Assembly: GCA_965220255.1 (NCBI GenBank)
Contig: OZ244816.1
Location: 854,083 to 918,082 of the forward strand
DNA from: Dehalococcoidia bacterium
Lineage (GTDB): Bacteria; Chloroflexota; Dehalococcoidia; Lucifugimonadales; VXLM01
Length of the DNA stretch: 64,000 nucleotides
Direction of reading: 5' to 3'
Below, in pieces: positions 55 through 63,432 of this stretch (position 1 is the stretch's first letter; each line of letters opens with the position of its first letter). The notes under the pieces are model-generated. The model saw only the letters and a list, made by a program, of their open reading frames with translations. It did no database searches and had not been told where the DNA came from. Made by a program: the position numbers and the translations under genes.

Positions 55-90
55 CCCTCACCCCAGCCCTCTCCCGCGAACGGGAGAGGG
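55..90. repeat. CCCTCACCCC-AGCCCTCTCCC…GGGAGAGGG palindromic intergenic repeat (uninterrupted form)
   Basis: Hairpin ccctctcccg-cgaa-cgggagaggg; related copies at 7426-7510 and 57430-57490. Confidence 0.8.
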
Positions 91-94
91 GGGA

Positions 95-122
95 TGGATT
101 CCCGCTTTCGCGGGAATGACGG
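95..122 (-). repeat. CGTC-type REP / dRS3-like hairpin (CCGTCATTCCCGCGAAAGCGGGAATCCA)
   Basis: ATTCCC-N8-GGGAAT palindrome with CGTC tag; at least 12 copies in the window. Confidence 0.9.
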
Positions 123-138
123 GTGCGGGTCAGTCCCG

Positions 139-1554
139 CTATTCGTCGTCCTCGTCGAGGTCGGGCATGAGGACGAACTCCGGGTAGGACTCCATGCCGA
201 GTTCCCCGGCGTCCTGGCCCAGGCGCTCGACCTGGTGCGTCACGCGGGCGCTGACGGTCATGTCTATGAGCTTCCAGAGCACGAACGAGACCGCGAACAC
301 GAACACGCCTATCGCGAGGATGCCGATGAGCTGGACGTGGAACTGCGCTCCGCCCGCGAGGCCGATGGAGGCCGCCAGGGTGCCCCAGACGCCGGCGAAG
401 AGGTGGGCGGGGACGGCTCCGACGACGTCGTCGAGCTTGAGCTGCTCGAGGAGGCGGAGGCCGGCGGTACAGATGACGGCGCCGATCGCGCCGATGACGA
501 CCGCCCAGTAGTGGTCGGTGAAGTCGGGGGCGGCGGTGATGGAGACGAGGCCCGCTATCGCGCCGTTGAGACCCGCGAAGAGGTCGACGCGTCCGAGGAT
601 GGGACGTGAGACCGCCAGCGCGGTTATGACGCCCGCGGCGGCGGCGAGGTTGGTGTTGACGAGGACGATGCTCATGGAGATGGCGTCGGCGGCGCTGCCG
701 AGGGCGAGCTGCGATCCGCCGTTGAAGCCGAACCACCCCAGCCAGAGGATGAAGACGCCGAGCGTGACGATCAGGATGTTCGAGGGCGGCGTGGCGCGGA
801 CGGAGCCGTCCTTGCGGAACTTGCCGAATCTTGGGCCGACGACGATCATGCCCGCGAGGGCGGCCCAGCCGCCGGTGCTGTGGACGATGGTGGAGCCGGC
901 GAAGTCGACGAAGCCCATCTCTGCGAGCCAGCCGCCTCCCCAGGTCCATGCGCCGACGACGGGGTAGATGATGGCCGTCAGGACGAGGGTGAACAGGAAG
1001 AACGACCACATCTTGACGCGTTCGGCGAGGGCGCCGGAGACGATGGAGGCGGCGGTGGCGACGAAGACCATCTGGAAGAACCAGTCGGACATGACGGAGT
1101 AGCTGCCCTCTTCGAGGACCTTGGCGGTGGCGGCTGCGACGGCATCGTCACCGGCTTCGAGGAGCGCGACCTCGGCGGAGGACGGCAGGTACATGAACGC
1201 GGGGGTGCCGATGAAGCCCGCGATGATGTCGCCGTACATGAGGTTGTAGCCGATGAAGAAGTAGGCGAGGCCCGCGATGGAGTAGAGGCCGATGTTCTTG
1301 AGGCAGATCATCGCGGCGTTCTTGGTGCGGACGGAGCCCGACTCCAGCATGGTGAATCCGGCGCACATCCACATGACGAGCGCGCCCCAGATGAGGAACG
1401 AGAACGTGTTGAAGACGAACGCCGTCTCCTCCTCGACGCCCGCCGCGTAGGCGACGGACGGGCGCACAATGAAGAGGACGAGCGTGGCGAGCCCCGTTGC
1501 CGCAAGGATGGCGGCGGGGCGACGGTGGGTCAGGATGTTGGTGAGCGACGTCAA
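139..1554 (-). CDS. amtB: Ammonium transporter (Amt family)
   Basis: Motifs FFQMVF, DFAGSTIVH, WLGWFGFNGGS, DDVVGAVPAH; SD AAGGAGG before TTG start. Confidence 0.96.
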   Translation of the reverse strand: MTSLTNILTHRRPAAILAATGLATLVLFIVRPSVAYAAGVEEETAFVFNTFSFLIWGALVMWMCAGFTMLESGSVRTKNAAMICLKNIGLYSIAGLAYFFIGYNLMYGDIIAGFIGTPAFMYLPSSAEVALLEAGDDAVAAATAKVLEEGSYSVMSDWFFQMVFVATAASIVSGALAERVKMWSFFLFTLVLTAIIYPVVGAWTWGGGWLAEMGFVDFAGSTIVHSTGGWAALAGMIVVGPRFGKFRKDGSVRATPPSNILIVTLGVFILWLGWFGFNGGSQLALGSAADAISMSIVLVNTNLAAAAGVITALAVSRPILGRVDLFAGLNGAIAGLVSITAAPDFTDHYWAVVIGAIGAVICTAGLRLLEQLKLDDVVGAVPAHLFAGVWGTLAASIGLAGGAQFHVQLIGILAIGVFVFAVSFVLWKLIDMTVSARVTHQVERLGQDAGELGMESYPEFVLMPDLDEDDE

Positions 1555-1629
1555 CGGTGTACCTCCTTATATCTAAGGGTTCGCGACGATGCTACCACGT
1601 TGGAAGGGAGAGAGAAAGTAGGGGGGGAT

Positions 1630-1730
1630 TCACCGCAGAGGGCGCGGAGATCACAGAGGGGGAGGGGGAGGGGATTAGGGGGAAGTGTGGCATGGTGGGA
1701 CATTTTGGGACATTGGGGGACATTGGGGGG
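1630..1730. repeat. CAGAG-type 9-bp-period repeat, G-tracts and 3x GGGACATT (10-bp period)
   Basis: tcaccgcagagggcgcggagatcacagag at 1630-1658; gggacatt at 1697, 1707, 1717. Confidence 0.7.
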
Positions 1731-1826
1731 AAAAGAGGAGCGCCGCCGGGGTTGCCGGCGGCGCTTGGTTGTTGCTTGTCGTTCGTGAGGGCCGGGGTTG
1801 CCGACCCTCACGTTCCGTTTCGGTTG

Positions 1827-4800
1827 TTACGATCCGTCGTCCGCTGCACAGGCTGCCAGACCCGCGGCGTCTGCGTCCATGGCGGCGTCTATGATCGCTG
1901 CCGGTATGCAGGCGTCGGCGTCGAAGTCGTTGCCCGCGAGCAGCAGGTTCTGGAGGTCGGACAGGTTGCCCAACTCTGCCGGGATGCCTCCCGTGAGCAT
2001 GTTGTTGTGCAACTGCAGCCGCCTCAGTCCGCTGATGCTACCCAGCGATGCCGGGATGCTACCCGTCAGCATGTTGTCGGACAGGTACACCAGGGTCATG
2101 TTCGACGAGCCGCTCAGGTCCGGAATTTCGCCGTCCAGCATGTTGCCGCTGAGCATCAGGTACCGGAGCCTGGTTATGCTGCCGAACCCGGCCGGGATGC
2201 CGCCCGTCAGGTCGTTGTCCCTCACGTCGACCCGGCGCAAGGTCGTCACGCCGGCCAACTCCATCGGGATGTCGCCCGAGAGGTCGTTGTTCTTAAGGTA
2301 CAGGTAGTCGAGGCTGTCCATGTCACCGAGCGTCGCCGGCAGGCTGCCCGACAGGGAGTTATCCTGCAGGATCAGCCAAATCAGGTTGTCCAGGTCGCTC
2401 AGGTCGGGTATTTCACCCGTCAGGGCGTTGCTGTGCAACTGCAGCTTCGTGAGAGCATCCAGGCCGTTGAAGCCGGCCGGGATCGAGCCCGCGAGGCCGT
2501 GGCTCTTGAGGTACATGCTCGTCACGCGTCCGGTACCGCTCGACACGCCATCCCACTCATCCATCGGCGTCTCGGCGCTCCAGTTGAGTGCCGTGCCGTC
2601 GCCTACCAGCTCAGCCATGCCGTCCAGCAGGATCTGGCAGTCATTCGCCAGATTCTCGGTGGCGTCCTCGCCGACGGCTCCGCCCTCCACGCACGGATGC
2701 GTGGTCTCAACCGGGCCTCCGCCAGCTAGCACGATGATCGCGTCGTCCGGGCCGTCGGTGACGTTGATGATCACCGTCACGCTGTCAGACGCGCCCGACG
2801 GGTCCGTCGCCGTCAACACGATCGTGTGATACTTCGCGTCATCGGGCAAGCTCTCGTAGTCCAACTCCACAGCCGTCGTGATCTGTCCGTTATTGTCCGT
2901 CTTGAAGAGTGCCGCGTCAGATCCGCTCACCGTGTAAGCCATCAGGTCGCCGTTCGCGTCTGTCGCCGCGACCGGGTCACCGACCCTCGCACCCTTATCG
3001 TTCTCCGCAACCGACCGCACCGCGTCTGCCTGGTTCCCAGGCGTGCTCGGGTCCTGGTCGGCGGCGAAATTCGGAGCCGTGTTCGCAGGATCGCTCACCT
3101 GAACCTGACGGACCGTCGACCCTACGGCGCTGTCACCGTCATCCCCAGCGGTACCGTCCGTGTCCGTGACAAAGTCGTCCACGTAGGTCGCCACCGCATG
3201 CAGCCTGAAGGTCGCGTCATCGGCAACCGGCGTATAGAGGGGCGACCCTTCGGCGACTTCGCAAGCCGTAGTTGCCGTTGCAGGTGCTGCTTCAGTGCAT
3301 TCCGTCGGCGGCGTGGCAGCCGTCAGGGTTCCTTGCAGTGTCGTCAGCTCATCAGCGGTCATAGCTGTGTTGCCGCCTCTGTACCACTTCCAGTTCACGC
3401 TTCTCTGCCCGCCGTCCTGGTCCTCAAGCGTAGCAAACACCGAACGACCCACCTGTGGCTCAGGCTGCGAGATCTCCACCTCGCCGGCGTCTTCAGCGTT
3501 CTGCACCTTGACCGTAATAGCCAGCTTGGTGATTCGCTCGCGGTCCCCGCGGGAGGCAGCATCGGTTCCGCCCGATGTGACCACCAGGGTTATCGAGAGC
3601 TCTTTCTTGCCCTCGTAGTCGAATTCGGCACCGGAGGCGATCGTCACGTCACCAGTGGTCGGGGTGGCGATCGTGAACTCGTCCTCGTCAGCGCCCTCCA
3701 GCGAGAACGTGATGGCACCATCGCCGTCGTCAGTGTCCGCGTCAGTCGCCGTATAGGTAACCGGAGCGCCCGTGAGGGCAGCCGCCGTGAAGAGCCCGGT
3801 GGGGGCTATCTCGGCAACGTACAGGGTCTTCTGATCGCTGCCAGCAGTAAGCGTCGGCGCCTCGTTCGCGTCCGTTACCGTGATCACAACAGGAACAGTC
3901 TGGTACGCGCCCGACGGATCCGTCGCCCTCACAAGCACGACGTACTCATTGTTAGCCGCAGCGTTGTCCGGGGTTGCCCCAGCCGCCGTTGCGGTTGCAT
4001 CAGCCGCAGCTACCAGCACGTCCGCTGCAGCCTCGAAGTTCAGACCATCCTTCTTCACCGAGAGCTGGCCCGTTCTTTCGCTGATGCTGAATGTCGCAGC
4101 GGTACCGATATCACGGTCAAGGCCCGAATCAATGCTGTAGAGCAGCACGTCGTTGTCACCGTCCGTCGCCACTACCGGGTCGCCGAAGGCTCCATCCGCG
4201 TTCTCGGTCAAGCTCCGCGCCACCTGTGTCCCGGCCGTCGCATCATCCGAGTCGTCGAGACCGCCGAAGGATGGCCGAGAGTTCGCAGTCGTCCTCTCTT
4301 CCACAGCGTTCTCCGTCACGCCCGATACCGTCTTGTCGCCGAACTTGTCGGTGTAACTCGATGTCGCGCGCAACCACATCCCGTCGTCAGCCTCTTCCGG
4401 CTGACGGGAGGCACGCTTCGCGGCGCCACCTTCAATGTCCGTCCAAGGTCCGTCCGCAGTCGGACCGCGTGACCACTGCCACGTCGCCTCGCTCAAGTCA
4501 ATCCCGCCGTCAGGGTCAGATGCAGCGCCACCCGTCGCCATTAGGGGCCTGCCAATCTGCGGCTGAGGCTGCGTGAAGTTCACCTTCCCCGCCTCGTCTA
4601 CGTCCGTGACCGTTACCTGAACAGCCTGCTCGCCGCCAGAGGCCACCACGGTCACCTGGTACTTGTTGTCGCCCTTGCCCTGGTCACCGGCAACCTCATC
4701 ATCCGGTATTTCGTCGGCGTCATTGGCCGCCTCGAAGCTGGGAGAGTCCTTCCAAGTGAGCACGCCGCCTTCAATCTCGAAGAGGCCCGCGTCCACACCC

Positions 4801-7211
4801 TTCAAACTCCAAGCGATGTCGCCCGCGTCCGCGTCAGGGTCCGTCGCGCTAAACGTCGCAACCGGATCCTCGCCGTTCTCCGCATAATCGCACTCTATAG
4901 GATCTGCGCCGGAACACTGAACACCCACGGCGGCGCTGGTGATCGCCGCGTCGTCCGGGCCGTCGGTGACGTTGATGATCACCGTCACGTTGTCAGACGC
5001 GCCCGACGGGTCCGTCGCCGTCAACACGATCGTGTGATACTTCGCGTCATCGGGCAAGCTCTCGTAGTCCAACTCCACAGCCGTCGTGATCTGTCCGTTA
5101 TTGTCCGTCTTGAAGAGCGCCGCGTCAGGACCGCTCACCGTGTAAGCCATCAGGTCGCCGTCCGCGTCTGTCGCCGCGACCGGGTCACCGACCCTCGCAC
5201 CCTTATCGTTCTCCGCAACCGACCGCACCGCGTCTGCCTGGTTCCCAGGCGTGCTCGGGTCCTGGTCGGCGGCGAAATTCGGAGCCGTGTTCGCAGGATC
5301 GCTCACCTGAACCTGACGGACCGTCGACCCTACGGCGCTGTCACCGTCATCCCCAGCGGTACCGTCCGTGTCCGTGACAAAGTCGTCCACGTAGGTCGCC
5401 ACCGCATGCAGCCTGAAGGTCGCGTCATCGGCAACCGGCGTATAGAGGGGCGACCCTTCGGCGACTTCGCAAGCCGTAGTTGCCGTTGCAGGTGCTGCTT
5501 CAGTGCATTCCGTCGGCGGCGTGGCAGCCGTCAGGGTTCCTTGCAGTGTCGTCAGCTCATCAGCGGTCATAGCTGTGTTGCCGCCTCTGTACCACTTCCA
5601 GTTCACGCTTCTCTGCCCGCCGTCCTGGTCCTCAAGCGTAGCAAACACCGAACGACCCACCTGTGGCTCAGGCTGCGAGATCTCCACCTCGCCGGCGTCT
5701 TCAGCGTTCTGCACCTTGACCGTAATAGCCAGCTTGGTGATTCGCTCGCGGTCCCCGCGGGAGGCAGCATCGGTTCCGCCCGATGTGACCACCAGGGTTA
5801 TCGAGAGCTCTTTCTTGCCCTCGTAGTCGAATTCGGCACCGGAGGCGATCGTCACGTCACCAGTGGTCGGGGTGGCGATCGTGAACTCGTCCTCGTCAGC
5901 GCCCTCCAGCGAGAACGTGATGGCACCATCGCCGTCGTCAGTGTCCGCGTCAGTCGCCGTATAGGTAACCGGAGCGCCCGTGAGGGCAGCCGCCGTGAAG
6001 AGCCCGGTGGGGGCTATCTCGGCAACGTACAGGGTCTTCTGATCGCTGCCAGCAGTAAGCGTCGGCGCCTCGTTCGCGTCCGTTACCGTGATCACAACAG
6101 GAACAGTCTGGTACGCGCCCGACGGATCCGTCGCCCTCACAAGCACGACGTACTCATTGTTAGCCGCAGCGTTGTCCGGGGTTGCCCCAGCCGCCGTTGC
6201 GGTTGCATCAGCCGCAGCTACCAGCACGTCCGCTGCAGCCTCGAAGTTCAGACCATCCTTCTTCACCGAGAGCTGGCCCGTTCTTTCGCTGATGCTGAAT
6301 GTCGCAGCGGTACCGATATCACGGTCAAGGCCCGAATCAATGCTGTAGAGCAGCACGTCGTTGTCACCGTCCGTCGCCACTACCGGGTCGCCGAAGGCTC
6401 CATCCGCGTTCTCGGTCAAGCTCCGCGCCACCTGTGTCCCGGCCGTCGCATCATCCGAGTCGTCGAGACCGCCGAAGGATGGCCGAGAGTTCGCAGTCGT
6501 CCTCTCTTCCACAGCGTTCTCCGTCACGCCCGATACCGTCTTGTCGCCGAACTTGTCGGTGTAACTCGATGTCGCGCGCAACCACATCCCGTCGTCAGCC
6601 TCTTCCGGCTGACGGGAGGCACGCTTCGCGGCGCCACCTTCAATGTCCGTCCAAGGTCCGTCCGCAGTCGGACCGCGTGACCACTGCCACGTCGCCTCGC
6701 TCAAGTCAATCCCGCCGTCAGGGTCAGATGCAGCGCCACCCGTCGCCATTAGGGGCCTGCCAATCTGCGGCTGAGGCTGCGTGAAGTTCACCTTCCCCGC
6801 CTCGTCTACGTCCGTGACCGTTACCTGAACAGCCTGCTCGCCGCCAGAGGCCACCACGGTCACCTGGTACTTGTTGTCGCCCTTGCCCTGGTCACCGGCA
6901 ACCTCATCATCCGGTATTTCGTCGGCGTCATTGGCCGCCTCGAAGCTGGGAGAGTCCTTCCAAGTGAGCACGCCGCCTTCAATCTCGAAGAGGCCCGCGT
7001 CCACACCCTTCAAACTCCAAGCGATGTCGCCCGCGTCCGCGTCAGGGTCCGTCGCGCTAAACGTCGCAACCGGATCCTCACCGTTCTCCGCATAATCGAA
7101 CTCGAGCGGATCGGCGGCTGACACCGCCGGTGCTATGACCACCAAGGTCGCCAGCACGGCGGCAATGATGCCGAACCGGGTCAATACTGCGTAGGCTGAT
7201 GTATTCTTCAT
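1827..7211 (-). CDS. Secreted cadherin-like repeat protein with C-terminal plant-type LRR domain (~1794 aa)
   Basis: Signal peptide after MKNTSAY; cadherin motifs (AEN, ATDPD, LDYE, VTDxNE); LRRs LxxLxLxxNxLxGxIP with N-cap (NDC…LNW…WDGV). Start chosen at ATG 7211 (SD GAGAGGG). Confidence 0.88.
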   Translation of the reverse strand: MKNTSAYAVLTRFGIIAAVLATLVVIAPAVSAADPLEFDYAENGEDPVATFSATDPDADAGDIAWSLKGVDAGLFEIEGGVLTWKDSPSFEAANDADEIPDDEVAGDQGKGDNKYQVTVVASGGEQAVQVTVTDVDEAGKVNFTQPQPQIGRPLMATGGAASDPDGGIDLSEATWQWSRGPTADGPWTDIEGGAAKRASRQPEEADDGMWLRATSSYTDKFGDKTVSGVTENAVEERTTANSRPSFGGLDDSDDATAGTQVARSLTENADGAFGDPVVATDGDNDVLLYSIDSGLDRDIGTAATFSISERTGQLSVKKDGLNFEAAADVLVAAADATATAAGATPDNAAANNEYVVLVRATDPSGAYQTVPVVITVTDANEAPTLTAGSDQKTLYVAEIAPTGLFTAAALTGAPVTYTATDADTDDGDGAITFSLEGADEDEFTIATPTTGDVTIASGAEFDYEGKKELSITLVVTSGGTDAASRGDRERITKLAITVKVQNAEDAGEVEISQPEPQVGRSVFATLEDQDGGQRSVNWKWYRGGNTAMTADELTTLQGTLTAATPPTECTEAAPATATTACEVAEGSPLYTPVADDATFRLHAVATYVDDFVTDTDGTAGDDGDSAVGSTVRQVQVSDPANTAPNFAADQDPSTPGNQADAVRSVAENDKGARVGDPVAATDADGDLMAYTVSGPDAALFKTDNNGQITTAVELDYESLPDDAKYHTIVLTATDPSGASDNVTVIINVTDGPDDAAITSAAVGVQCSGADPIECDYAENGEDPVATFSATDPDADAGDIAWSLKGVDAGLFEIEGGVLTWKDSPSFEAANDADEIPDDEVAGDQGKGDNKYQVTVVASGGEQAVQVTVTDVDEAGKVNFTQPQPQIGRPLMATGGAASDPDGGIDLSEATWQWSRGPTADGPWTDIEGGAAKRASRQPEEADDGMWLRATSSYTDKFGDKTVSGVTENAVEERTTANSRPSFGGLDDSDDATAGTQVARSLTENADGAFGDPVVATDGDNDVLLYSIDSGLDRDIGTAATFSISERTGQLSVKKDGLNFEAAADVLVAAADATATAAGATPDNAAANNEYVVLVRATDPSGAYQTVPVVITVTDANEAPTLTAGSDQKTLYVAEIAPTGLFTAAALTGAPVTYTATDADTDDGDGAITFSLEGADEDEFTIATPTTGDVTIASGAEFDYEGKKELSITLVVTSGGTDAASRGDRERITKLAITVKVQNAEDAGEVEISQPEPQVGRSVFATLEDQDGGQRSVNWKWYRGGNTAMTADELTTLQGTLTAATPPTECTEAAPATATTACEVAEGSPLYTPVADDATFRLHAVATYVDDFVTDTDGTAGDDGDSAVGSTVRQVQVSDPANTAPNFAADQDPSTPGNQADAVRSVAENDKGARVGDPVAATDANGDLMAYTVSGSDAALFKTDNNGQITTAVELDYESLPDDAKYHTIVLTATDPSGASDSVTVIINVTDGPDDAIIVLAGGGPVETTHPCVEGGAVGEDATENLANDCQILLDGMAELVGDGTALNWSAETPMDEWDGVSSGTGRVTSMYLKSHGLAGSIPAGFNGLDALTKLQLHSNALTGEIPDLSDLDNLIWLILQDNSLSGSLPATLGDMDSLDYLYLKNNDLSGDIPMELAGVTTLRRVDVRDNDLTGGIPAGFGSITRLRYLMLSGNMLDGEIPDLSGSSNMTLVYLSDNMLTGSIPASLGSISGLRRLQLHNNMLTGGIPAELGNLSDLQNLLLAGNDFDADACIPAAIIDAAMDADAAGLAACAADDGS
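2739..7098. repeat. Intragenic tandem duplication: 2739-4890 and 4947-7098 (2152 bp each, 2208-bp period)
   Basis: Alternate-frame ORFs recur at +2208 with identical translations; the few mismatches seen lie near the unit ends. Confidence 0.95.
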
Positions 7212-7257
7212 GCGTGCCCTCTCTTTGCCTAGAACTTTGCTAAACATGGATGCCAGA

Positions 7258-7286
7258 ACAATACCATCGGGGAAAACCAGTGTCAA
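7258..7286 (-). promoter_or_regulatory. Sigma70-type promoter TTGACA-17-TATTGT with extended -10
   Basis: Minus strand ttgaca ctggttttccccgatgg tattgt, just upstream of the cadherin/LRR gene. Confidence 0.7.
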
Positions 7287-7425
7287 GTAGCTGGACTTGC
7301 TCGTTGGTTTCCATTCCCGAACGGGATTGCCGACAGGGAGTATAGCACAGCGATGCAGGGTTTGCGTAGGGTTTCGTGGTGTATTTTCAGGCTGTATTGG
7401 AGATGCGCGGTCCGGCGCAGGGGGA

Positions 7426-7510: not shown

Positions 7511-7717
7511 ATATGACGGGGGCGTCTGCGCGTGGCGTCGGGGTTGACGGATGCGAACGGATGGTCTATGCTTGGGGGATGAACAGGCAATGTCGGAGTT
7601 GGCGTTGGCGCGGGGTGATCGTACAGGACGTGGGGAAGTGCTGTGCGATGTCGCGGCATGTGGCGGGGTTGTGGGTGTTGTGCCGGGTGGTGGGGGTGTG
7701 CGTGGGCGGGGGGTGAC

Positions 7718-7795: not shown

Positions 7796-7845
7796 GGGGG
7801 TTGGGTGTTAGGTGTTAAAGGAAAGGGGGATGGATTCCCGCTTTC

Positions 7846-7967
7846 GGAGACCATTGCATAACCTCCGTCATTCCCGCGAAGGCGGGAATCCAGAGATGTC
7901 TCCGAAGCTGGATGATGCCCTTTCAATGACATCCTCTCAGCGGGAGAACGGTTACGCAAAGGCCTCC
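7846..7967. mobile_element. 122-bp MITE with an internal REP, inserted in the loop of another REP (host 7831-7984)
   Basis: 18-bp TIRs ggagaccattgcataacc / ggttacgcaaaggcctcc (15/18); TTTC duplicated at 7842-7845 and 7968-7971; removal restores a canonical REP. Confidence 0.85.
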
Positions 7968-8056
7968 TTTCGCGGGAATGACGGGAGGGGGGGGAATGAC
8001 GGGTGGGGAATGTTACGAAATGTTACAGAATGTTACGTTTGGAGGGGGGGATGCCC

Positions 8057-8229
8057 TCACCATACCTCGTGATACAGGTCCTTCCAAGATGGATTGCCCT
8101 TCTCAATCAGTTCAATCTTCCAAGCGCGGTTCCACTTCTTAAGCATCTTCTCTCTTGCAATCGCGTTCTCCATGGACTCATGGGCTTCATACCAAACCAG
8201 TGTATGTACCCTATAGCGCTTCGTGAATG
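8057..8229 (-). pseudogene. C-terminal half of a small GIY-YIG nuclease
   Basis: Manual translation [56 protein letters not shown]; the N-terminal GIY/YIG half is missing. Confidence 0.85.
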
Positions 8230-11200
8230 AGGCCGTTCGAGTTGCTCATGCGTTGTCTCTCCTCAGCGGTCTTTCTTCGTCTCCGCAACGCCGCGATCAG
8301 CAAGACCAGCAACAAGAGCAGCCCCATCAGGCTGATGGGCACCAGCGCCCTGTCATCGATGCCCATCGACGCTATGAACTGGGGCAGCGCAGTCGGGAGG
8401 GCGATCGGCGTGGGCGACGAGCCCTTCGTCAGAGTCATGCCCGGCGCAGGGACAGGAGTAGGCGTAGGCGTTGGATTTACGCTCGCCACTGCGGGGACGC
8501 CTCCTGTGCCGGAACCGTCGTCCGATGATCCAGCCGGTACAGGGGTAGGAGTGGCTCTCGTGTCCTCATCATCGGTCGGCTGACCGGACGTGGGTGTGGG
8601 AGTCGCCGCCGTCTCTTCATCGTCCGGCTGGGCCGGTCCGGGGGTGGACAACGCGCTCAGGCGTACCGTTACGGTGAAGGTCTCCGTAACCTCGTACTCG
8701 CCATCGTCGGCCGTAATCGTCACCGTGTAGTCACCGACCTTCGCGTCGTCCTCGACCGCTCCGCCCGTCATGCTCTCGCCCGGATCGTAGGCCAGGCCGT
8801 TCGGCAGACCTTCCAGGGTCACAGTCGGCGATGGATCGTCGTCAAAGACGAGGATGCCGAAGGGGTGTACCGTCTGACCCTGGGAATAGCTCTTGTCACC
8901 CGGATTGATGATTATGGGCGGCGTGTTGATGTCTCCTCCGTGCCCGTAGCCGTCATCCTCCTGGGCCCCCACGTTCCCCTGGCGGTAACCCGGACCGGGT
9001 GTGGGCGTTGCGGATGTCGGCACAGGTGTCGGCACAGGTGTTGGTTCAGACCTCGGGCCGGGCGTCGGCTCAGGCGTCGGTACTGGCGTCGGCTCAGGAG
9101 TAGACCCAGACGTTGGCTCCGGTGTCGGCTCAGGCGTCGGCTCAGGTGTAGACCCAAGCGTAGGCTCCGGCGTGGGCACAGGCGTCGATTCGGGCGTCGA
9201 TGTGGGTGTGGGCACAGGCGTCGATGTGGGTGTGGGTGTCGGCGTGGATTCCGGCGTCGGCTCCGGTGTAGGCTGATGCGTGGATTCAGGCGTTGGCACC
9301 GATGTCGGCTCAGGTGTTGGTTCGGGTGTAGGCTCGGGTGTAGGCTCTGGCGTCGGAATGGGCGTCGGAATAGGCGTTGGGGTTGGCGTTGGGGTTGGCG
9401 TTGGTATGGGAGTCGGAGTGGGCGTGGGAGTCGGCGCAGTCTGCCCAGCGGTGGAGCCTTCCCCGTAGTCCGACCACGGGCTGACGCCCTCATCGTTCCG
9501 GGCTCTTACTATGACGTGGTACGTCGTGTCTGCGCGCAATCCCGTGATCGCGGCATGGGTCTGGAGGCCGGAGAGAGGGTTTGCCGTCCACTCGGTCTCG
9601 CCCACCTCTTTGTACGCCATGTCGTAGGATGTCACAGGCGGTCTGCCCGTCGTGTCCGGGGCCGTCCACGTCACGTCCAGCGCGGAAGCGGGGAAGTCTG
9701 ACGATCGGAGCACTGTCGGGGCGGCCGGTCTGGCCGGCGGCTCGTTCACGTCCGTCACGTTGACGGTGAGAGACAGGGTATCCGTGTGGCTGTGCCCGTC
9801 GTCCACCGTGACAGTGAGGGCGTCATAGGTCTGCCTAGCCTCGAAGTCCAGCGGGGCTTTGGTCCTCAACTGGCCGGTGTCACCGTCGATGGTGAACGCG
9901 CCGGCGTCGGCCCCGCTGAGAGTGTAGGTGAGCGGATCGTCTTCCGCATCGGTCGCCGTGATCGCCGCGCCGATTGCCGTGCCCGGCGGCGTGTTCTCGG
10001 CCACTGAGCGGGCGGCGTCATCGCCCTCGGTGAATTTCGGCAGCCCGTCGTCGTCCGCTATGGTCACCATCGCGGTCCGCCGGCCCATCGATACGCCATC
10101 GTCGGGCGATGAGACGGTCACCTTGATCAGCACAATTGAAAAGCTCTCCAGGTCCTCGTGTTCGTCGTCGTCGAGGATGTTTATCGTGATGGTTGCCGTC
10201 GTCTGTCCGGGCTGGAAGGTCACTGTGCCGGAACTGGGCTCGTGTTCGTGCGCCGGTGAATGGGACCTGCGGGAGGACCCCGACGCCCCGCCGGCCCCAT
10301 TTGCGCCCGATCCTCCCCCGGTTGACCACGACACCGTGACCGTAGCGTCCACAGGCGCGGAGAGACTGACCGGCAGGCCCACGCTGGATCCCTCACCCAC
10401 CGGGTTGCCCGGCGAGTGGATGGAGACCGAGGCGGCGGTGTTGCCAACTCCGGTATCCGACCAGGGGCTTTCACCCTCGTCGTTCCGCGCGAGCACCTGC
10501 ACCTCGTAGGCCGTGCTCCCCGTCAAGCCGGAGAGCGTGGTCTGGGTTCCCGTGCCCGAGAAGGCGTGGTCGGTCCACTCCGTCGCGCCCTGAGCCCGGT
10601 ACCGCACGTCGTAGCCGGTAATGGCGGGCTTCCCCGTCATGTCCGGCTCAGTCCATGCCACGTCCAGCGCGGACGAGGGGGAGCCTGACGATTGGCTCAC
10701 CGACGGCGCGTCGGGCTTGGGCGGCGCCTCGTCCACGTCGGTCACGGTAATCGTCACCGTAATCTCGGTACTGGCGGGCGGGGTTTCGGCATCAATAGCG
10801 TGGGGGTCGCGGTAGGCCGCTACGACGACGGTATAGATGTCCTGGGCCTCATGGTCCAAGGACGCGCCCTGGGCAACGGCTATCTGCCCGTTGCCCGCGT
10901 CCAGAGCGAAAATGGAGGATGGAGTCTTCAGTGCATAGACCAACGTTTGGCCATGGCTGTCTGTAGCCGTTACCATGTCGCCCACGGGGGTCCCGGCCGG
11001 TGAGTTTTCGGCCACCGCGCGGTGTGAGGCCTGCTTGGGGAATGCCACCCTGTGGCTTCGTGCACCGGTCTGGCCTTCACCCGGCGATGACCAAGGGCTG
11101 GCGATGTTGGAACTGTGCGCCCGGACCCGGACCTCGTAGGCCGTGTCCTTTGTCAGGCCGGTAAGCGTGGTGCTGGTCTGCGTGCCGGTGAAGGCGTGGT

Positions 11201-17200: not shown

Positions 17201-17351
17201 AGACCTGCAACGGGGGAGGCGCCTCCTGCGCGGAAGCCGATGGCGAGGAGAACAGGACGGCAGCCAGTGCGGCCAGGACAAGTATCAGCGTGAGTGACGC
17301 CCCGCGCTTCAGTCCGGTCTTCGAACTATAGTTGCCTGCCGTCGTATTCAC
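8211..17351 (-). CDS. Giant membrane-anchored surface protein/adhesin (FN3, cadherin-like, putative Ig, Calx-beta, Pro/Thr/Glu linkers), 3046 aa
   Basis: Signal peptide; FN3 motifs (LDVTWTAP…YEVQVRA…GPWS); cadherin motifs ([14 protein letters not shown]); Calx-beta ([10 protein letters not shown]…DDDEHE); C-terminal TM helix + RRRRK. Confidence 0.9.
9001..9435 (-). repeat. Coding (PT)n/(PTPE)n low-complexity repeat
   Basis: 6/12-bp periodicity with synonymous variation; a second PTPE tract lies at ~16805-16950. Confidence 0.85.
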
Positions 17352-33039: not shown

Positions 33040-33150
33040 TGACTGTTCAGACTTCGTAGGAGCGCTCAACGCACGCAGCCACCGTCATACCCGCTTTCGC
33101 GGGTATCCATAGGGGTGGGGGATGTTCACACCATAAATTTTGAACACTCA
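33040..33150. mobile_element. ~110-bp MITE-like element (ACTGTTCAGA ends) with an internal REP
   Basis: tgactgttcagactt…ttttgaacactca; near-identical to 55617-55726. Confidence 0.75.
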
Positions 33151-42270: not shown

Positions 42271-42345
42271 GCGGGCGTAACTCAGTGGCAGAGTGTCTGC
42301 TTCCCAAGCAGAAAGTCGGGGGTTCGAATCCCCTCGCCCGCTCCA
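42271..42345 (+). tRNA. tRNA-Gly(CCC)
   Basis: Acceptor stem gcgggcg/cgcccgc; anticodon arm tctgc-ttCCCaa-gcaga; GGTTCGAATC; encoded CCA. Confidence 0.97.
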
Positions 42346-43074: not shown

Positions 43075-43146
43075 TAACTGTTCAGACTTCATGAGACCGC
43101 TCTACACACACAGCCCACCGTCATTCCTGCGAAGGCAGGAATCCAG
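43075..43146. repeat. Left arm + REP of the ACTGTTCAGA MITE-like family
   Basis: taactgttcagacttc…ccgtcattcctgcgaaggcaggaatcca; no matching right end. Confidence 0.75.
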
Positions 43147-45205: not shown

Positions 45206-45340
45206 AACTGTTCAGACTTCACGCGAGCGCTCTACACACAGCCCACCGTCATTCCGGCGAAGGAACGTCACCCCGTACCACGATACGGGGCCGGAATCCA
45301 AAAGGGCGGGGAGGTTTCTCTCACCAAGTCTGAAACAGTT
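45206..45340. mobile_element. ACTGTTCAGA MITE-like element whose REP carries a 27-bp insert
   Basis: TIRs aactgttcagactt / aagtctgaaacagtt; insert at 45264-45290. Confidence 0.8.
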
Positions 45341-50469: not shown

Positions 50470-50486
50470 CGTATAGGAGAGGCGTC

Positions 50487-50635
50487 ACTGTTCAGACTCC
50501 GTGAGAGCGCTTGACACACACAGCCCACCGTCATTCCCGCGAAAGCGGGAATCCAGAGTCGGGTACACATATACTCTCTATGAGGAATAGATTCCCGCTT
50601 TCGCGGGAATGACGGGAAATGTCAACACAACCTAG
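50487..50635. repeat. Composite element: ACTGTTCAGA left arm + inverted REP doublet + GAAATGTCAACACAACCTAG tail
   Basis: REP arms 50528-50553 and 50590-50615 with a 36-bp spacer. Confidence 0.85.
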
Positions 50636-50644: not shown

Positions 50645-51869
50645 CAGGGCAATCGCATCTTATTGGGCAAGGACCTTGAGTAGATAGTCATTGTCCCAGG
50701 CGGCGTCTTTTCGTTTGCCGGCGATGCTGCGCTTGGTGGACTTTTCGGCCTTGAGCAGATTCAGGGCCATGCGACGTAGCACAGAGAAGTTCTCTGCCCC
50801 ATTCCCGTTACGCACCCGGCATCCATCCTCATTGAACGTCACGTCCAGTGACCAGTGCAATTGGTTCTCTATGCTCCAGTGGCTGCGCACCGCGTTGAGC
50901 AAGACGCTCGCATCGTTTGGCAAGCTCGATATGTAGTAGCGCGACTCCACCCTCGTCTTGCCACCGACGAGTCGCTCGCCTTCCACCATCACCAACGTAG
51001 TCAACCCCGGCCACTGCCCGCCATCATCTACGTATCTGATGTGGTCGAGGTCGGACACGGCCCAGCATCGACGAGTCTCGACTCGTCCGTGACCCGCATT
51101 TGTCGTCTCGTAGTAGTCGTGGTCGAGACTGTCGAAGCCGGACTTGCGGGCAAGATCGAAGATGTCATGCATATCCTCGTGCAGGCGCCCCTGGTTCTTC
51201 TTGACCGCCAGCACGTAGTCGGCTTTCTCCTGCAGGATCTTCGATGCGACCTCCTTCTGGCAGCCCATGGCGTCGATAGTCACGATGCACCCTTCGACCT
51301 GGAGCATTTCGAGCAGTCGGGGTATTGCCGTGATCTCATTGGAGCGCCCGTCCACTCTGGTCTGTCCGAGTGCTACGCCGCTCGCAGAGGCCCAAGCGCT
51401 GACCATGTGGATCGCATCCTTCCCTATATACCGGTCGTGTGAACGACGCACTCTCTTGCCGTCTATGGCTAAGACGTCACCTTGCAGAACCTCTCGCACA
51501 GCCAACACCCACTCGGTGAAGCAGCGCTCGAACTGCTGAGCATCCAGCCTGGCAAAGACCCTGCCAAAGGTGTCGTGGGATGGAATACCGTTAGGCAGGT
51601 CCAGCATCCTGCGCAGCCAGTCCGCCTTGCGCCTGCCGAACGCCTCCACGTCCACCCAACTGTCCGCACCTGCTATGACACCGCAGAGCGCAATGGTGAG
51701 GATGTCCATTAGAGGGTGGCGTTTGGTGCGGTCAATACGCGGATCGACCAAGCTGCCAAAGTGTTCGGTCAGGGACGCTGTGTCTCTACTCGCCATGGGG
51801 CACTCTCCACATGAGATTGACCCCAATTCTATAACTTGTCTAAGACTTCATTTAGATGCGATTGCCCTG
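50645..51869 (-). mobile_element. Complete ISAs1-family insertion sequence (1225 bp)
   Basis: Perfect 16-bp TIRs CAGGGCAATCGCATCT; 10-bp TSD GCCGATTTCG at 50635-50644 and 51870-51879. Confidence 0.96.
50660..51796 (-). CDS. ISAs1 DDE transposase
   Basis: DPR, GIPSHDTF, AIDGK, SNEITAIP, DAMGCQ, HWSIENQLHW.LDV.F.ED. Confidence 0.96.
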   Translation of the reverse strand: MASRDTASLTEHFGSLVDPRIDRTKRHPLMDILTIALCGVIAGADSWVDVEAFGRRKADWLRRMLDLPNGIPSHDTFGRVFARLDAQQFERCFTEWVLAVREVLQGDVLAIDGKRVRRSHDRYIGKDAIHMVSAWASASGVALGQTRVDGRSNEITAIPRLLEMLQVEGCIVTIDAMGCQKEVASKILQEKADYVLAVKKNQGRLHEDMHDIFDLARKSGFDSLDHDYYETTNAGHGRVETRRCWAVSDLDHIRYVDDGGQWPGLTTLVMVEGERLVGGKTRVESRYYISSLPNDASVLLNAVRSHWSIENQLHWSLDVTFNEDGCRVRNGNGAENFSVLRRMALNLLKAEKSTKRSIAGKRKDAAWDNDYLLKVLAQ

Positions 51870-55616: not shown

Positions 55617-55726
55617 TAACTGTTCAGACTTCGTGAGGGCGCTCAACGCACACAGCCACCGTCATACCCGCAAAAGCGGGTATCCATAGGGGTGGGGGAT
55701 GTTCACCCATGAACTCTGAACAATTA
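55617..55726. mobile_element. 110-bp MITE-like element (ACTGTTCAGA ends) with an internal REP
   Basis: taactgttcagactt / aactctgaacaatta (13/15 inverted match). Confidence 0.8.
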
Positions 55727-55782
55727 CCACCACTGGTACGTAAGATCGAAGACACACCTGCCAACTCTGATAGAATTGCCGC

Positions 55783-56145
55783 ATGGAGCGGCAGACGTTC
55801 GAGCGGCTGGTGCGGGTGGCGCTGGGCACGATACCGGAGGACTTCCGGCGACGCCTTGAGAATGTCGACATCATCGTCGAGGACTGGCCTTCACCCGATC
55901 AGCTTGCCGGTCACCTCGTGGACGACTCGCACCTGCTCCTCGGCCTCTATGAGGGAGTGCCCCTCACGGAGCGGGCCGACTACCTGGCCATCCTTCCCGA
56001 CCGGATCACTATCTTCCAGAGGTCGATCGAGTCCATATGCGAGTCGAACGAGGAGATCGTCGAGGAGATACGCATGACGGTCATCCACGAGGTCGCTCAC
56101 CACTTCGGGATCGACGACGAACGGCTGCATGAATTGGGGGTGTAG
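55783..56145 (+). CDS. Minimal zincin metallopeptidase (DUF1025-like)
   Basis: LLGLYEGVPL, PDRITIFQ, HEVAHHFG. Confidence 0.9.
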   Translation: MERQTFERLVRVALGTIPEDFRRRLENVDIIVEDWPSPDQLAGHLVDDSHLLLGLYEGVPLTERADYLAILPDRITIFQRSIESICESNEEIVEEIRMTVIHEVAHHFGIDDERLHELGV

Positions 56146-56148
56146 GAG

Positions 56149-57354: not shown

Positions 57355-57429
57355 ACGTGCCGGTTCGCCTACTGTGAACCAGTGTATAGGATGCCGTCGC
57401 CGTGGGCTAGGAATAGGGGGCGGAGAACA

Positions 57430-57490
57430 CCCTCATCCCCGTATCGAGTACGGGGCAGGCTCTAGCCCTATCCCGCGAACGGGAGAGGGG
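57430..57490. repeat. CCCTCA…GGGAGAGGG repeat with one inserted mini-hairpin cassette (57437-57463)
   Basis: ccctcat[ccccgtatcgagtacggggcaggctct]agccctatcccgcgaacgggagagggg. Confidence 0.8.
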
Positions 57491-57555
57491 ATGTCCGCGC
57501 GTTGGCATGGCTGTTATGTCGGAAAGGAACCGGCGCTCGTCAGGGCGAAATGGGA

Positions 57556-59403: not shown

Positions 59404-59506
59404 CGCTCACGCCCCCTCTCTGTATCTCTCCCCCGCCAGCGGGGGAAAGATTATGGAATCCCTACGAGAGCATAGCAAACCCGGATGCCGCGCGGTACGC
59501 GGCACG

Positions 59507-60703: not shown

Positions 60704-60772
60704 GAGGTCGCGGTCATTTGGTGTTCCGTTTCGCAAGTTCATCGAATAAGTGCGACAACAATCGACGCCCAT

Positions 60773-60880
60773 CCGTCATTCCCGCGAAAGCGGGAATCTA
60801 TTCCCCGTAGAAAGTATATGTGTCCCCAACTCTGGATTCCCGCTTTCGCGGGAATGACGGGAAATGTCAACACAGCCTAG
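60773..60880. repeat. Inverted REP doublet + GAAATGTCAACACAGCCTAG tail
   Basis: Perfect 26-bp arms 60773-60798 and 60835-60860 with a 36-bp spacer. Confidence 0.9.
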
Positions 60881-61275
60881 AACAATTTGGGCTGGTAGTA
60901 CTTCCCGTCGTTCGTAGTGTTGTGCTTCGGGTTCCTCCCAAGTTGGCGACGATGAGAACCGAGTTTAGCAGCCTCGACGCGTTCAGCGGACTTCCGGGGT
61001 ATAGCCTTCGTCTGGACTACCAGCTTGTCTCCGCGTCCGAGCTTTCCCGTCTTCTTGTGCTCGGCCGCTCGCCGTGACGGATTATTCGTGGTGCCAATAT
61101 ACTTCGTGGTGCCCTTGCGGCTCTTGATCGCATACTGGACCGTCTTCCCGGATTTGATCTGCCCCTTAGGCCGAGTGCTACTACGCCTGCTTGAACTTCG
61201 CCGCGCGCTACTTCTGCTTCCAGAGATCCGTCGAGACCCGCCTCTGTAGCCTCCTCTCCCAAAGCTTCTAGCCAT
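60877..61275 (-). CDS. GIY-YIG nuclease-like protein with an Arg/Ser/Gly-rich N-terminus
   Basis: VQYAI…KYIGTTNNPSRRAAEH…AERVE…PKHN; SD AAAGGAG. Confidence 0.75.
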   Translation of the reverse strand: MARSFGRGGYRGGSRRISGSRSSARRSSSRRSSTRPKGQIKSGKTVQYAIKSRKGTTKYIGTTNNPSRRAAEHKKTGKLGRGDKLVVQTKAIPRKSAERVEAAKLGSHRRQLGRNPKHNTTNDGKYYQPKLF

Positions 61276-61395
61276 GGTCAAACTCCTTTCGGCCCATATC
61301 TGCGTGAACATCTCGATATCAAGTTCGGGTCATTATAGGGTCAACGAAAACGCAGTAAAACCCGACGGAAAACGGCCTGCCGTCTCAATCGTCCA

Positions 61396-62487
61396 TCACA
61401 GATTAAACAGCACGTGCATAATCTCGCCGTCCTGCACGACGTAGTCCTTCCCCTCCTGGCGGAGGATGCCGCGTTTCCGTGCCTCGGCGAAGCCGCCGCA
61501 CTCGACCAAGTCATCGAACGGCACGACCTCCGCGCGGATGAAGCCCTGCTCGAAGTCGGTGTGTATCTTCCCTGCCGCCCTCGATGCCGTCGTGCCCTCC
61601 CGGATCTCCCACGCGCGCACCTCGTCGTCTCCGATGGTCAGGAAGGTGATCAGTCCAGCGACGTCGTACGAGAGCCGGATGATCCTGTTCATCCCCGACT
61701 CTCCCGCGCCAACCGCCTCCCTGAACTCGGCTTCGTCCGCCGCGTCCATCTGCGCGAGGTCCATCTCCAGTTTGCCGCATAGGGCAGCGGCTCGGACGGA
61801 CGGTCCTTGAACCGTCTCGTCAAGCCGTTCTTCGAGCTCGACTGCCTCATCGAGATCGCTCTCGTCGATGTTGAGCAGGACGATGAGAGGCTTCGCCGTA
61901 AGGAACTGGAACCCGCGAAGGCGCTGGGCCTCCTCGGTCGTGAACTGCTGGTCGCGGATGGGCGTCTCTGCTTCGAGATGCCCCTTGATGCTCCCTAGCA
62001 GATCGCGCTCCTTCTGTATGGCGTCGCGCTCGGATGCCTTCGCGCCCTTGGAGCTGTCGTCCAGTCGCTGAAGACGGCGCTCAAGGATTTCGAGGTCCGA
62101 GAAGAGAAGTTCCAGCATCATGTTTTCGACATCTCGGAAGGGATCGACCGAGCCGTCAACGTGGAGCACGGCCTCGTCCTTGAAGGCCCGTGCAACGATG
62201 AGCAGCGCGTCGACCCGCTGCAGGTCGTTCAGGTACTGGCCCGATATCCCTCGTATCCTGCCGGAAGGGCTTGCCGGAGGTGGTATGTCGACGTAGCTCA
62301 CCGTCGCAGGCACCCGTTTGCGGGGTTCGTACAGGTCAGCGAGGCGGTCCAGGCGTGCGTCCGGCACGGCAGCGACGCCGACATTCGGCGCTCCACCATA
62401 CGACGCCACATCCGCCCGCCCGCCCGTCAAAGCGTTGAACACGGTGGTCTTCCCGCTCCCGGGCAGACCTATGATGCCGATTTCCAT
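61396..62487 (-). CDS. ychF: Redox-regulated ATPase YchF
   Basis: GIIGLPGSGKTT, LTAKP, AAGKIHTDFEQGFIRAEV, EGKDYVVQDG. Confidence 0.95.
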   Translation of the reverse strand: MEIGIIGLPGSGKTTVFNALTGGRADVASYGGAPNVGVAAVPDARLDRLADLYEPRKRVPATVSYVDIPPPASPSGRIRGISGQYLNDLQRVDALLIVARAFKDEAVLHVDGSVDPFRDVENMMLELLFSDLEILERRLQRLDDSSKGAKASERDAIQKERDLLGSIKGHLEAETPIRDQQFTTEEAQRLRGFQFLTAKPLIVLLNIDESDLDEAVELEERLDETVQGPSVRAAALCGKLEMDLAQMDAADEAEFREAVGAGESGMNRIIRLSYDVAGLITFLTIGDDEVRAWEIREGTTASRAAGKIHTDFEQGFIRAEVVPFDDLVECGGFAEARKRGILRQEGKDYVVQDGEIMHVLFNL

Positions 62488-62538
62488 GGGTGTGTTTCTC
62501 TGTGGAGAATGGCAGGAGGCGCCGGTGACTCGGAAGAA

Positions 62539-62916
62539 CTATCTCTGGGAATCGCCCTTCGGAGCGTCCTCGTCCTCGACGTGGCGATACTGGCCTTCGA
62601 TGACCTTCTCCCGTGGTTGGCCGGCGCCGGCTTCCGTGGGAGAGTCGGCGGGACGTCCGGTGAGATATTCATTCAGGACGCTGCGGGGGGTCATCAGCAG
62701 GAATGAGGCTAGAGCAACGAGGATGACGATGAGGTCGTCGGTATGCCCCAGGATCGGGAAGAGGTCGGGCAGAAGGTCGATGGGCAGGACAAGGTAGATG
62801 ACGGCGACCGGTATGATCAGCTTCAGGCGAAGGGGCACTCGCCGGTCGAGCATCAGCCTGAAGACCAGACCGGGAATCCTGGTAAGCATCAACACGCGTA
62901 GAATCGGCATTGCCAT
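62539..62916 (-). CDS. YkvA/DUF1232 membrane protein
   Basis: YLVLPIDLLPDLFPILGHTDD. Confidence 0.85.
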   Translation of the reverse strand: MAMPILRVLMLTRIPGLVFRLMLDRRVPLRLKLIIPVAVIYLVLPIDLLPDLFPILGHTDDLIVILVALASFLLMTPRSVLNEYLTGRPADSPTEAGAGQPREKVIEGQYRHVEDEDAPKGDSQR

Positions 62917-63260
62917 GAGTCCGCGCTCCTTACCGTTACGATACCATAACACTGGCCGTGGAGGCCTCATGCCGTGTCATAGACTCCCACCCAATTTGAC
63001 CACCAAGAACGCTTGGCCTACGATGACCATGTCGCACGAGCGGACGCCGGAAAACGCGATCGGACCCACGAATCCGTATGAGACAATCTGCGAACTACTG
63101 CAAGAGATTCGGCCCCAGAGGAATTCTTCTCAAACCGTCTCATCCGCCCGTCGTCTGTCGGATGCGTTTGCCCGAAACAGCTTCAACACGGCCCTCCGGC
63201 ACGAGCGAAAAGGAGCGAGACATATTGAGAACAAGAGAAACTAGCGGGGAAATAACGGCG

Positions 63261-63350
63261 TCTCAGACCATCTCATTTTCTCAAATGATCTCATCGCCTC
63301 AGACCATCCCACTTTCTCAAACGCTCTCATCGTCTCAAACCGTCTCACGC
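63261..63350. repeat. Five tandem 18-bp units (TCTCAnnnnnTCTCAnnn)
   Basis: Units start at 63261, 63279, 63297, 63315, 63333; a lone copy lies at 63128-63145. Confidence 0.8.
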
Positions 63351-63377
63351 CTGAAGGAGGCTTCGCGCCAACACTCT

Positions 63378-63432
63378 CCGTCATTCCCGCGAAAGAAATT
63401 CGGCCCGTACCGGGATCCAAGACGGGAATCCA
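63378..63432 (+). repeat. REP with a 27-bp insert (63396-63422)
   Basis: ccgtcattcccgcgaaag[aaattcggcccgtaccgggatccaaga]cgggaatcca. Confidence 0.8.

Follow-up and report, generated by a model that had tools for sequence, protein, structure and literature searches.

We analyzed a family of short, hairpin-forming DNA repeats, together with two open reading frames (ORFs) for proteins with GIY-YIG domains that lie beside some of them, in a stretch of 64,000 nucleotides from an uncultured Chloroflexota bacterium of the class Dehalococcoidia (contig OZ244816.1; this whole 64-kb stretch is called the window below). Intact hairpins of the form CGTC-ATTCCCGC-N4-GCGGGAAT-CCA were found 9 times with the search pattern CGTCATTCCCGCNNNNGCGGGAATCCA at up to 3 mismatches, compared to 0.00 expected from 100 shuffles, and half-site searches uncovered 3 additional copies whose loop is either enlarged or interrupted (45247-45300 and 63379-63432 on the plus strand as well as an outer minus-strand copy at 7831..7983). 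The window therefore holds 12 copies plus one left-half remnant, which agrees with a preliminary description that had counted at least 12. Very probably, these repeats are elements of the Neisseria Transformation Sequence (NTS)/SRM type that nucleases of the GIY-YIG family Ssn recognize on single-stranded DNA (ssDNA), the local nuclease gene ssnA has been wrecked, and the mosaic around the repeats stems from ordinary mobile DNA. The features on which this reading is based, with the way in which each was found, are the following:

95..121, minus strand: intact NTS with loop GAAA between convergent gene ends (pattern search, sequence read)
7831..7983, minus strand: outer NTS whose 4-nt loop is broken by a 122-bp MITE (miniature inverted-repeat transposable element), left half at 7972-7983 and right half at 7831-7841 (half-site search)
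7846..7967, no strand assigned: IS5-family-type MITE with terminal inverted repeats (TIRs) GGAGACCATTGCATAACC / GGTTACGCAAAGGCCTCC, flanked by duplicated TTTC and carrying the inner NTS (end comparison)
7866..7892, plus strand: intact inner NTS with loop GAAG, inside the MITE (pattern search)
7990..8001, minus strand: left-half NTS remnant CGTCATTCCCCC (half-site search)
8060..8236, minus strand: ssnA pseudogene remnant that corresponds to residues 38-93 in an Ssn-type GIY-YIG nuclease of 94 aa (homology, Pfam)
33083..33109, plus strand: NTS variant with stem ATACCCGC/GCGGGTAT within a ACTGTTCAGA-type unit (33041 to ~33150; pattern search)
43119..43145, plus strand: NTS variant with stem ATTCCTGC/GCAGGAAT and a ACTGTTCAGA left arm from 43076 (pattern search)
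45206..45340, plus strand: MITE-like unit with inverted ends ACTGTTCAGACTT / AAGTCTGAAACAGT that holds the NTS variant 45247-45300 (half-site search, folding)
50486..50635, plus strand: composite unit of ACTGTTCAGA left arm, inverted NTS pair, and right arm GGAAATGTCAACACAACCTAG (sequence read, folding)
50645..51869, minus strand: ISAs1-family insertion sequence (profile match, ends, target duplication)
55618..55727, plus strand: ACTGTTCAGA-type unit of ~110 nt with inverted ends, holding the NTS variant 55660-55686 with stem ATACCCGC/GCGGGTAT (pattern search)
60774..60880, plus strand: inverted NTS pair (60774-60800 on the plus and 60833-60859 on the minus strand) with right arm GGAAATGTCAACACAGCCTAG (pattern search)
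60877..61311, minus strand: protein of a Chloroflexota GIY-YIG family, not an Ssn homologue, adjoining the NTS pair (homology, alignment)
63379..63432, plus strand: NTS with a 31-nt loop, right arm with one mismatch (ACGGGAAT; half-site search)

The hairpins come in 4 stem versions with perfect pairing in each (ATTCCCGC/GCGGGAAT, ATACCCGC/GCGGGTAT in 2 copies, ATTCCTGC/GCAGGAAT, and ATTCCGGC/GCCGGAAT), so that the stem covariation reported in the preliminary description holds; the last version, at 45247-45300, encloses a 31-nt loop with a small hairpin of its own. Single hairpins folded as ssDNA reach -7.7 to -9 kcal/mol (z -2.7 to -5.1). Outside the stem, the upstream GTC and the C directly after the palindrome are kept in all 12 copies, and no copy overlaps with a Pfam-supported ORF of the window. 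The published definition of the NTS, CGTCATTCCCGCGMAVGCGGGAATCYRG (Chenal et al., Nat Commun 2025, PMC11893778), is matched with at most 1 mismatch by 6 of the 9 intact copies (0 expected), the other 3 being stem or loop variants, while the degenerate SRM expression HGTCWY N0-2 YYVSBRH N0-5 WNVSBRG N0-2 RNCYNB matches 7 of the 9 but nothing in the reversed sequence. Beyond the window, the exact 27-mer is found in more than 130 stretches of a species-representative genome collection that belong to Proteobacteria, Chloroflexota, Planctomycetota, Nitrospirota, Bacteroidota, and other phyla.

If these hairpins were mainly structural signals of the host, e.g., stabilizers of RNA 3' ends or terminators, with the link to a nuclease being secondary, one could readily understand why they are stable, why they avoid Pfam-supported ORFs and in several cases lie at gene ends, and why some genomes have the repeats without any small GIY-YIG gene. 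However, their orientation to genes is inconsistent (the gaps that hold copies may be convergent, divergent, or tandem), the stem is not followed by a T-run, and the conservation of their sequence across phyla includes the unpaired flanks, which rather fits recognition by a protein. We therefore regard this explanation as quite unlikely.

Repetitive extragenic palindromes (REPs) and their REPIN doublets, which are served by REP-associated tyrosine transposases (RAYTs), resemble the window's repeats as short extragenic palindromes with inverted doublets forming long hairpins and an enzyme recognizing ssDNA. They differ in that the enzyme is an HUH Y1 transposase instead of a GIY-YIG nuclease, in their conserved flank (GTAG instead of CGTC), and in the fact that RAYT was found neither in the window nor in 4 NTS-rich relatives. 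The possibility that the repeats are classical REPs or REPINs of this kind, or else targets of an IS110/Piv-type recombinase like neisserial dRS3, with the enzyme encoded outside the window, could draw on the two REPIN-like inverted doublets of the window, on the use of dRS3 by a phage-encoded recombinase of Neisseria as its site of integration (reported in PMC1797815), and on the fit of 6 of the 9 intact copies to the dRS3 pattern ATTCCC-N8-GGGAAT. Yet a domain scan of 168 window ORFs revealed no Y1_Tnp (RAYT) or IS110 domain, and all 4 of the 4 NTS-rich Dehalococcoidia genomes scanned were without a match to the RAYT profile PF01797, while control genomes and Povalibacter were matched. These results, together with the CGTC flank, make an origin of this kind extremely unlikely. 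The statement of the preliminary description that the window has neither RAYT nor TnpA is right as far as RAYT is concerned, but one transposase of the ISAs1-family DDE type is present.

The connection between a small GIY-YIG nuclease and an oriented hairpin repeat was already published in 2025 and is not new as a discovery. As described in that work (PMC11893778), SsnA is a 94-aa single-domain GIY-YIG protein (cd10448) that binds the NTS solely as ssDNA and makes its cut a few nucleotides upstream, for which Y6, Y17, and E64 are required. Binding and cutting depend on the sequence of the stem as well as on the GTC immediately upstream and the C immediately downstream, and the flank positions are decisive; a change of stem sequence that keeps the pairing abolishes the activity of Neisseria SsnA. 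The same paper reports that ssn genes across bacteria are typically flanked by NTS/SRM and that SsnA reduces transformation by NTS-bearing DNA in N. meningitidis, while repeat mobility caused by Ssn is offered in its Discussion as a hypothesis only. Our window shares with this published system an oriented hairpin of 27-28 nt that is intergenic, multi-copy, and often arranged in inverted pairs, as well as an ssnA homologue beside a cluster of copies. It differs from it in its host, an uncultured Chloroflexota bacterium, in the truncation of the local ssnA to a pseudogene, and in several copies with compensatory stem changes or long loops. By homology to what has been shown elsewhere, we infer that hairpins of the window would be recognized by an Ssn nuclease. 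The idea of the preliminary description that a GIY-YIG enzyme acts on the hairpin was therefore correct in kind, and the ORF 8060-8236 does belong to the Ssn family, but this copy is truncated.

ORF 8060-8236 (minus strand) is a C-terminal piece that covers positions 39-77 of 78 in the Pfam profile PF01541 and has no NCBIfam match. Its 59 remaining residues are preceded by a stop codon and overlapped by the end of a 3046-aa ORF (8211-17351), no continuation exists in other frames, and the N-terminal half of ssnA is absent from the window (tblastn with three homologues, which otherwise gave weak motif matches only). The remnant keeps the REK glutamate, while the half with both catalytic tyrosines (GIY and YIG) is gone, and what is encoded falls short of a complete GIY-YIG domain of ~94-100 aa with Y6 and Y17. 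A truncated copy without these tyrosines cannot provide the active enzyme here. Its affiliation is nevertheless clear from identities of 63% to a 94-aa protein with NTS flanks from the genus Neisseria (over its residues 38-93, E 4e-26), 66% to an NTS-flanked homologue from Povalibacter, and 54-60% to four Dehalococcoidia-class homologues with NTS on both sides; the remnant lies within the cut-off for Ssn homology given in PMC11893778 (E < 1e-10). The Neisseria references came from 61 Neisseria-genus genomes searched with the Povalibacter homologue, 20 of which matched; these proteins of 94-96 aa carry Tyr6, Tyr17, and Glu64, and NTS copies surround 9 of the 12 loci that were fetched. From protein length, residue numbering, and flanks, we infer that the Neisseria-genus reference corresponds to SsnA of N. 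meningitidis. The N. lactamica genome first considered as an Ssn reference was rejected, having only a YhbQ-like 91-aa GIY-YIG protein without NTS flanks. Judged by its sequence, 8060-8236 is a dead ssnA, i.e., a pseudogene remnant of the Ssn family and not a working member. The NTS cluster 7831-8001 begins 56 nt from the stop of the remnant, with the half-site remnant 7990-8001 as the nearest copy. Hairpin copies thus do lie beside both GIY-YIG ORFs (56 nt and 17 nt away), as the preliminary description had it, but the first of these ORFs is just a C-terminal fragment. The region of NTS copies and ssnA remnant is situated between two giant repetitive ORFs on the minus strand, the one at 8211-17351 (3046 aa) with internal repeats of 12 nt and ~900 nt and another at 1827-7286 (1819 aa) with cadherin and leucine-rich repeats.

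A survey of 251 Dehalococcoidia-class genomes for NTS at up to 1 mismatch (with 0-1 matches for the reversed-pattern control) detected the repeat in 63 and an Ssn-like gene in 103 of them. Ssn-like genes were present in 41 of the 63 NTS-bearing genomes vs 62 of the 188 NTS-free ones, an association with an odds ratio of 3.8 (p 1.3e-5) when relatedness is ignored. These tallies include the genome G256, flagged as unpublished, which is Ssn-like positive without NTS and whose removal changes 62/188 to 61/187. Two arrangements of the repeats in other genomes stood out. In genome G003 (behind locus L025), all 37 of 37 perfect NTS copies from 1.83 to 2.86 Mb occupy the plus strand, while they are mixed elsewhere (6 plus and 14 minus before 1.55 Mb, 12 plus and 12 minus after 3.03 Mb); a simple replichore rule does not fit because dnaA (2.255 Mb) lies within the one-strand stretch, and 20 samples of 20 kb each yielded no informative GC skew. 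In genome G096, five perfect NTS follow each other in tandem at ~142-nt spacing at the start of contig 1 (68-659), which recalls neisserial arrays.

How the repeats of the window came to be nested can be followed best at 7831-7983. There, the 122-bp MITE 7846-7967 with its 18-bp TIRs (15 of 18 positions match) sits exactly in the loop of the minus-strand NTS, and the TTTC duplicated at its borders is the loop of this outer NTS. The ends of this NTS-carrying MITE are what had been described as the GGAGACC end type, and they recur, up to 185 times, in 27 of the 251 class genomes. Flanks of 9 distinct full copies form a palindrome at 8 of 8 positions in 4 cases and at 7 of 8 in 2 cases, with loop duplications of 3-4 nt. 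A full-length relative of 1.2 kb in genome G114 has matching ends and a TTGA duplication, lies in the loop of a CCCTCTCCC hairpin, and encodes a transposase that matches the IS5-family model NF033581 (E 2e-93, 312.7 bits vs a cut-off of 140). The window element thus shows everything expected of an IS5-family MITE, namely TIRs, a short target duplication, and a transposase-encoding full-length relative, and elements of this family enter several kinds of GC-rich hairpin with NTS among them. Since it combines 18-bp TIRs with a 4-bp target duplication, the nesting at 7831-7983 points to DDE transposition and not to GIY-YIG action. Hairpins of the second kind, CCCTCTCCC..GGGAGAGGG, are an IS5-family element target in other genomes; one is found in the window at 66-89 beside the NTS 95-121, and two more at 280-300 and 1503-1520 of locus L285.

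Insertion into extragenic palindromes is known from the REP-targeting insertion sequences IS1397, ISKpn1, and IS621 (Tobes and Pareja 2006, PMC1525189), and the families that this paper names as targeting REP palindromes include IS3 and IS110. As in these cases, a transposon of the window lies inside an extragenic palindrome, here exactly at the loop and with a 3-4-bp duplication; it differs from them by belonging to an IS5-family transposon and its MITE derivative, which are not NTS-specific, and by carrying an NTS itself. TIR-bounded inserts of 160-180 nt were also seen at NTS loops of two unrelated metagenome-assembled genomes (MAGs), with duplication of the 4-nt loop GCAA at locus L063 and of ~10 bp of loop plus part of the stem at locus L117. 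The ends of these two inserts (CAGGCTGTGTAAAAAC, GGCTGTCGCAAAAGG) are alike and also resemble part of the window's TCAACACAGCCTAG arm. A tentative generalization, which we consider possible without favoring it, is that in this lineage NTS loops serve as landing sites for hairpin-loop-targeting IS5-family transposons, that NTS-carrying MITEs nest in their own kind, and that arrays grow by DDE transposition in trans and not by Ssn. If general, such a model would explain the build-up of NTS- and NIME-like mosaics as well as the persistence of NTS in genomes where ssnA is dead or missing.

The 3 end types listed in the preliminary description all exist, i.e., the ACTGTTCAGA left arm in 5 copies, the right arm GGAAATGTCAACACARCCTAG in 2 copies, and the GGAGACC-type end in 1 element, and so does the swapping of flanks between them: Unit 50486-50635 joins the ACTGTTCAGA left arm to the right arm of the second type. 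This unit contains an inverted NTS pair (50529-50555 on the plus and 50588-50614 on the minus strand) with a 32-nt spacer and a potential 26-bp hairpin. The interior of the other pair, 60774-60859, is inverted compared to 50529-50614 while the right arm has not moved, an arrangement that would result if inverted NTS recombined with each other or if insertion took place in either orientation. Together with its inverted partner, the ACTGTTCAGA arm resembles a further MITE that carries an NTS. Neisserial dRS3 and the intergenic mosaic elements called NIME (Bentley et al. 2007, PMC1797815) are similar in combining an ATTCCC-N8-GGGAAT core with interchangeable flank modules in intergenic regions. 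They differ from the window, which has pairs but no long arrays, lacks a gene for a dRS3-targeting recombinase, and uses flank modules that appear lineage-specific because the ACTGTTCAGA arm was not found in the 251 class genomes. The ISAs1-family element right beside unit 50486-50635 is bounded by inverted ends of 21 nt and by the 10-bp sequence GCCGATTTCG (50635-44 and 51870-79) as target duplication, and it is an independent insertion next to the NTS unit, a bystander to the repeat system. A role of this element as the mobilizer, or of the TCAACACAGCCTAG arm as an ISAs1 end, was rejected because the element has 21-nt ends of its own and because its 10-bp duplication lies outside the TCAACACAGCCTAG arm.

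The preliminary description had gone further and proposed that a small GIY-YIG nuclease both cuts the hairpin and mobilizes the repeats by spreading, inversion, and shuffling, much like a RAYT would do. In favor of such an activity, an ssn gene flanked by inverted NTS resembles a small insertion sequence, as hypothesized in PMC11893778, and NTS-ssn-NTS units occur in genomes of both the genus Neisseria and the class Dehalococcoidia. Near-identical 27-mers are spread over many phyla, and the identity of 63-66% between the ssnA remnant and proteobacterial proteins would fit horizontal movement of gene and repeat as a pair when compared to 37-55% for YchF within the phylum (window YchF vs ten genomes, with the maximum of 55% in a Dehalococcoidia MAG). 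The same YchF values indicate that the host lineage is not closely represented among the genomes compared. On the other side, the work described in PMC11893778 shows cutting only, and no strand transfer or rejoining is known for the Ssn family; the sole insertion of the window that can be dissected bears the marks of a DDE transposon; the repeats are dense although the local gene is dead; and three NTS-rich genomes are without any small GIY-YIG protein. We therefore consider mobilization by the nuclease unlikely, and the claim that it drives spreading and shuffling is unsupported by the one nesting event that could be taken apart, which carries IS5-family DDE hallmarks.

Several observations weigh against our interpretation of the repeats as NTS/SRM elements of an Ssn system in a mosaic made by ordinary mobile DNA. 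No Ssn-like match was found in 5 of the 18 NTS-rich class genomes (at least 20 NTS each), and 3 of these 5 show only a UvrC-sized GIY-YIG protein, meaning either that the repeats can persist without the nuclease or that these MAGs are incomplete. Conversely, the SRM expression was detected within 1.5 kb of only 4 of the 30 best Ssn-like loci of the class, and the Ssn-like homologue of genome G003 (locus L134) is without a nearby NTS. The class proteins with few SRM seem to be a subgroup with other flanking repeats; at L134, spurious ORFs on either side of the gene share the peptide …VTLSGAKGL…, which suggests a different flanking repeat. Some copies of the window may not be substrates, given that 3 of the 4 stem versions deviate from the canonical NTS and that Neisseria SsnA loses its activity when the stem is changed with pairing kept (PMC11893778). 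Regarding the mosaic, the search for a parent element of the ACTGTTCAGA arm was negative in the class genomes (0/251), and the explanation by IS5 has been demonstrated for no more than one nested element. Insertions at the loop had been reported in the preliminary description, and the MITE 7846-7967 is a clear case, but neither of the two 31-nt loops (45247 and 63379) shows a clear duplication; because similar long-loop forms occur in other genomes, these two may be variants and not insertions.

The second GIY-YIG ORF at 60877-61311 (minus strand) turned out to be a different matter. Its 72 relatives have 53-90% identity, and the named ones are all from Dehalococcoidia or Chloroflexota MAGs. 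Alignment places the likely start of the protein at M13 (61275), and an RGG-rich tail forms its N terminus. The family was found in 6 of the 251 class genomes, and searches of 3 genomes that hold Ssn-like or YhbQ-like genes gave no match to this protein. Could it be a second, unrecognized nuclease that acts on NTS hairpins? Only 17 nt separate its stop codon at 60877 from the NTS ending at 60859, and catalytic-type residues are well preserved (across 14 aligned sequences, Y60, Y71, H85, E113, and N127 do not vary and R81 hardly does). The family is moreover present in 3 of 18 NTS-rich vs 3 of 233 other class genomes (p 0.005), and 2 of these 3 NTS-rich genomes are without an Ssn-like match. 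However, the counts are tiny and the genomes mutually related, and the three other family-bearing genomes have zero NTS. Among 31 related loci taken from genomes and metagenomes, just 1 has an NTS (up to 3 mismatches) within 1.5-2 kb, and the SRM expression is found near relatives at 0 of 9 loci. Likeness to a Neisseria-genus SsnA homologue is confined to 28 residues of the motif region (E 7e-5), similar to the match with the Ssn-like homologue of G003 (E 2e-6 over 26 residues). We therefore rate a second nuclease of this kind as very unlikely and rejected the protein as part of the repeat system, and the tie between this gene and the repeats that the preliminary description had drawn does not stand. 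It belongs to a separate family restricted to Chloroflexota and is probably a bystander whose adjacency to the NTS pair looks coincidental; an NTS beside it is unremarkable because the window averages one NTS locus per ~5 kb. In its closest relative (L141/L142, genome G004, ~2.0716-2.0732 Mb), the gene is split by a ~1.16-kb insert with short inverted ends TACCATTTC / GAAATGGTA, presumably an unrelated insertion sequence. Elsewhere in the window, a tRNA gene at 42271-42342 (plus strand) is the sole Rfam match.

Taken together, an SsnA-type enzyme would bind the folded NTS via its stem, the upstream GTC, and the downstream C before cutting the single strand upstream. The window probably holds the wreck of one NTS-ssnA unit, with a 3' gene remnant beside a nest of NTS copies, and an active enzyme, if any, would be encoded elsewhere in the genome or have been lost. 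NTS copies ride inside MITE-like units, at least one of these, an IS5-family MITE, has entered another NTS at its loop and left a 4-bp duplication, and inverted NTS pairs could let the segment between them flip. Spreading, inversion, or shuffling of the repeats by Ssn nucleases themselves is a hypothesis, while there is evidence that at least part of the nesting and mosaic structure is the work of a DDE transposon.

Chloroflexota are not named in the main text of PMC11893778, and its Supplementary Data 4 lists cultured representatives (Dehalococcoides, Anaerolinea, Chloroflexus) with 0 NTS. Compared to these NTS-free cultured references, the genome studied here is that of an uncultured Chloroflexota bacterium with a high density of NTS, 12 in 64 kb. 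The window adds a clear example of a decayed NTS-ssnA unit and, with an IS5-family MITE entering a hairpin loop, a checkable route to nested and mosaic repeats. It thereby has a bearing on which enzymes spread the NTS, Ssn nucleases or ordinary transposases.

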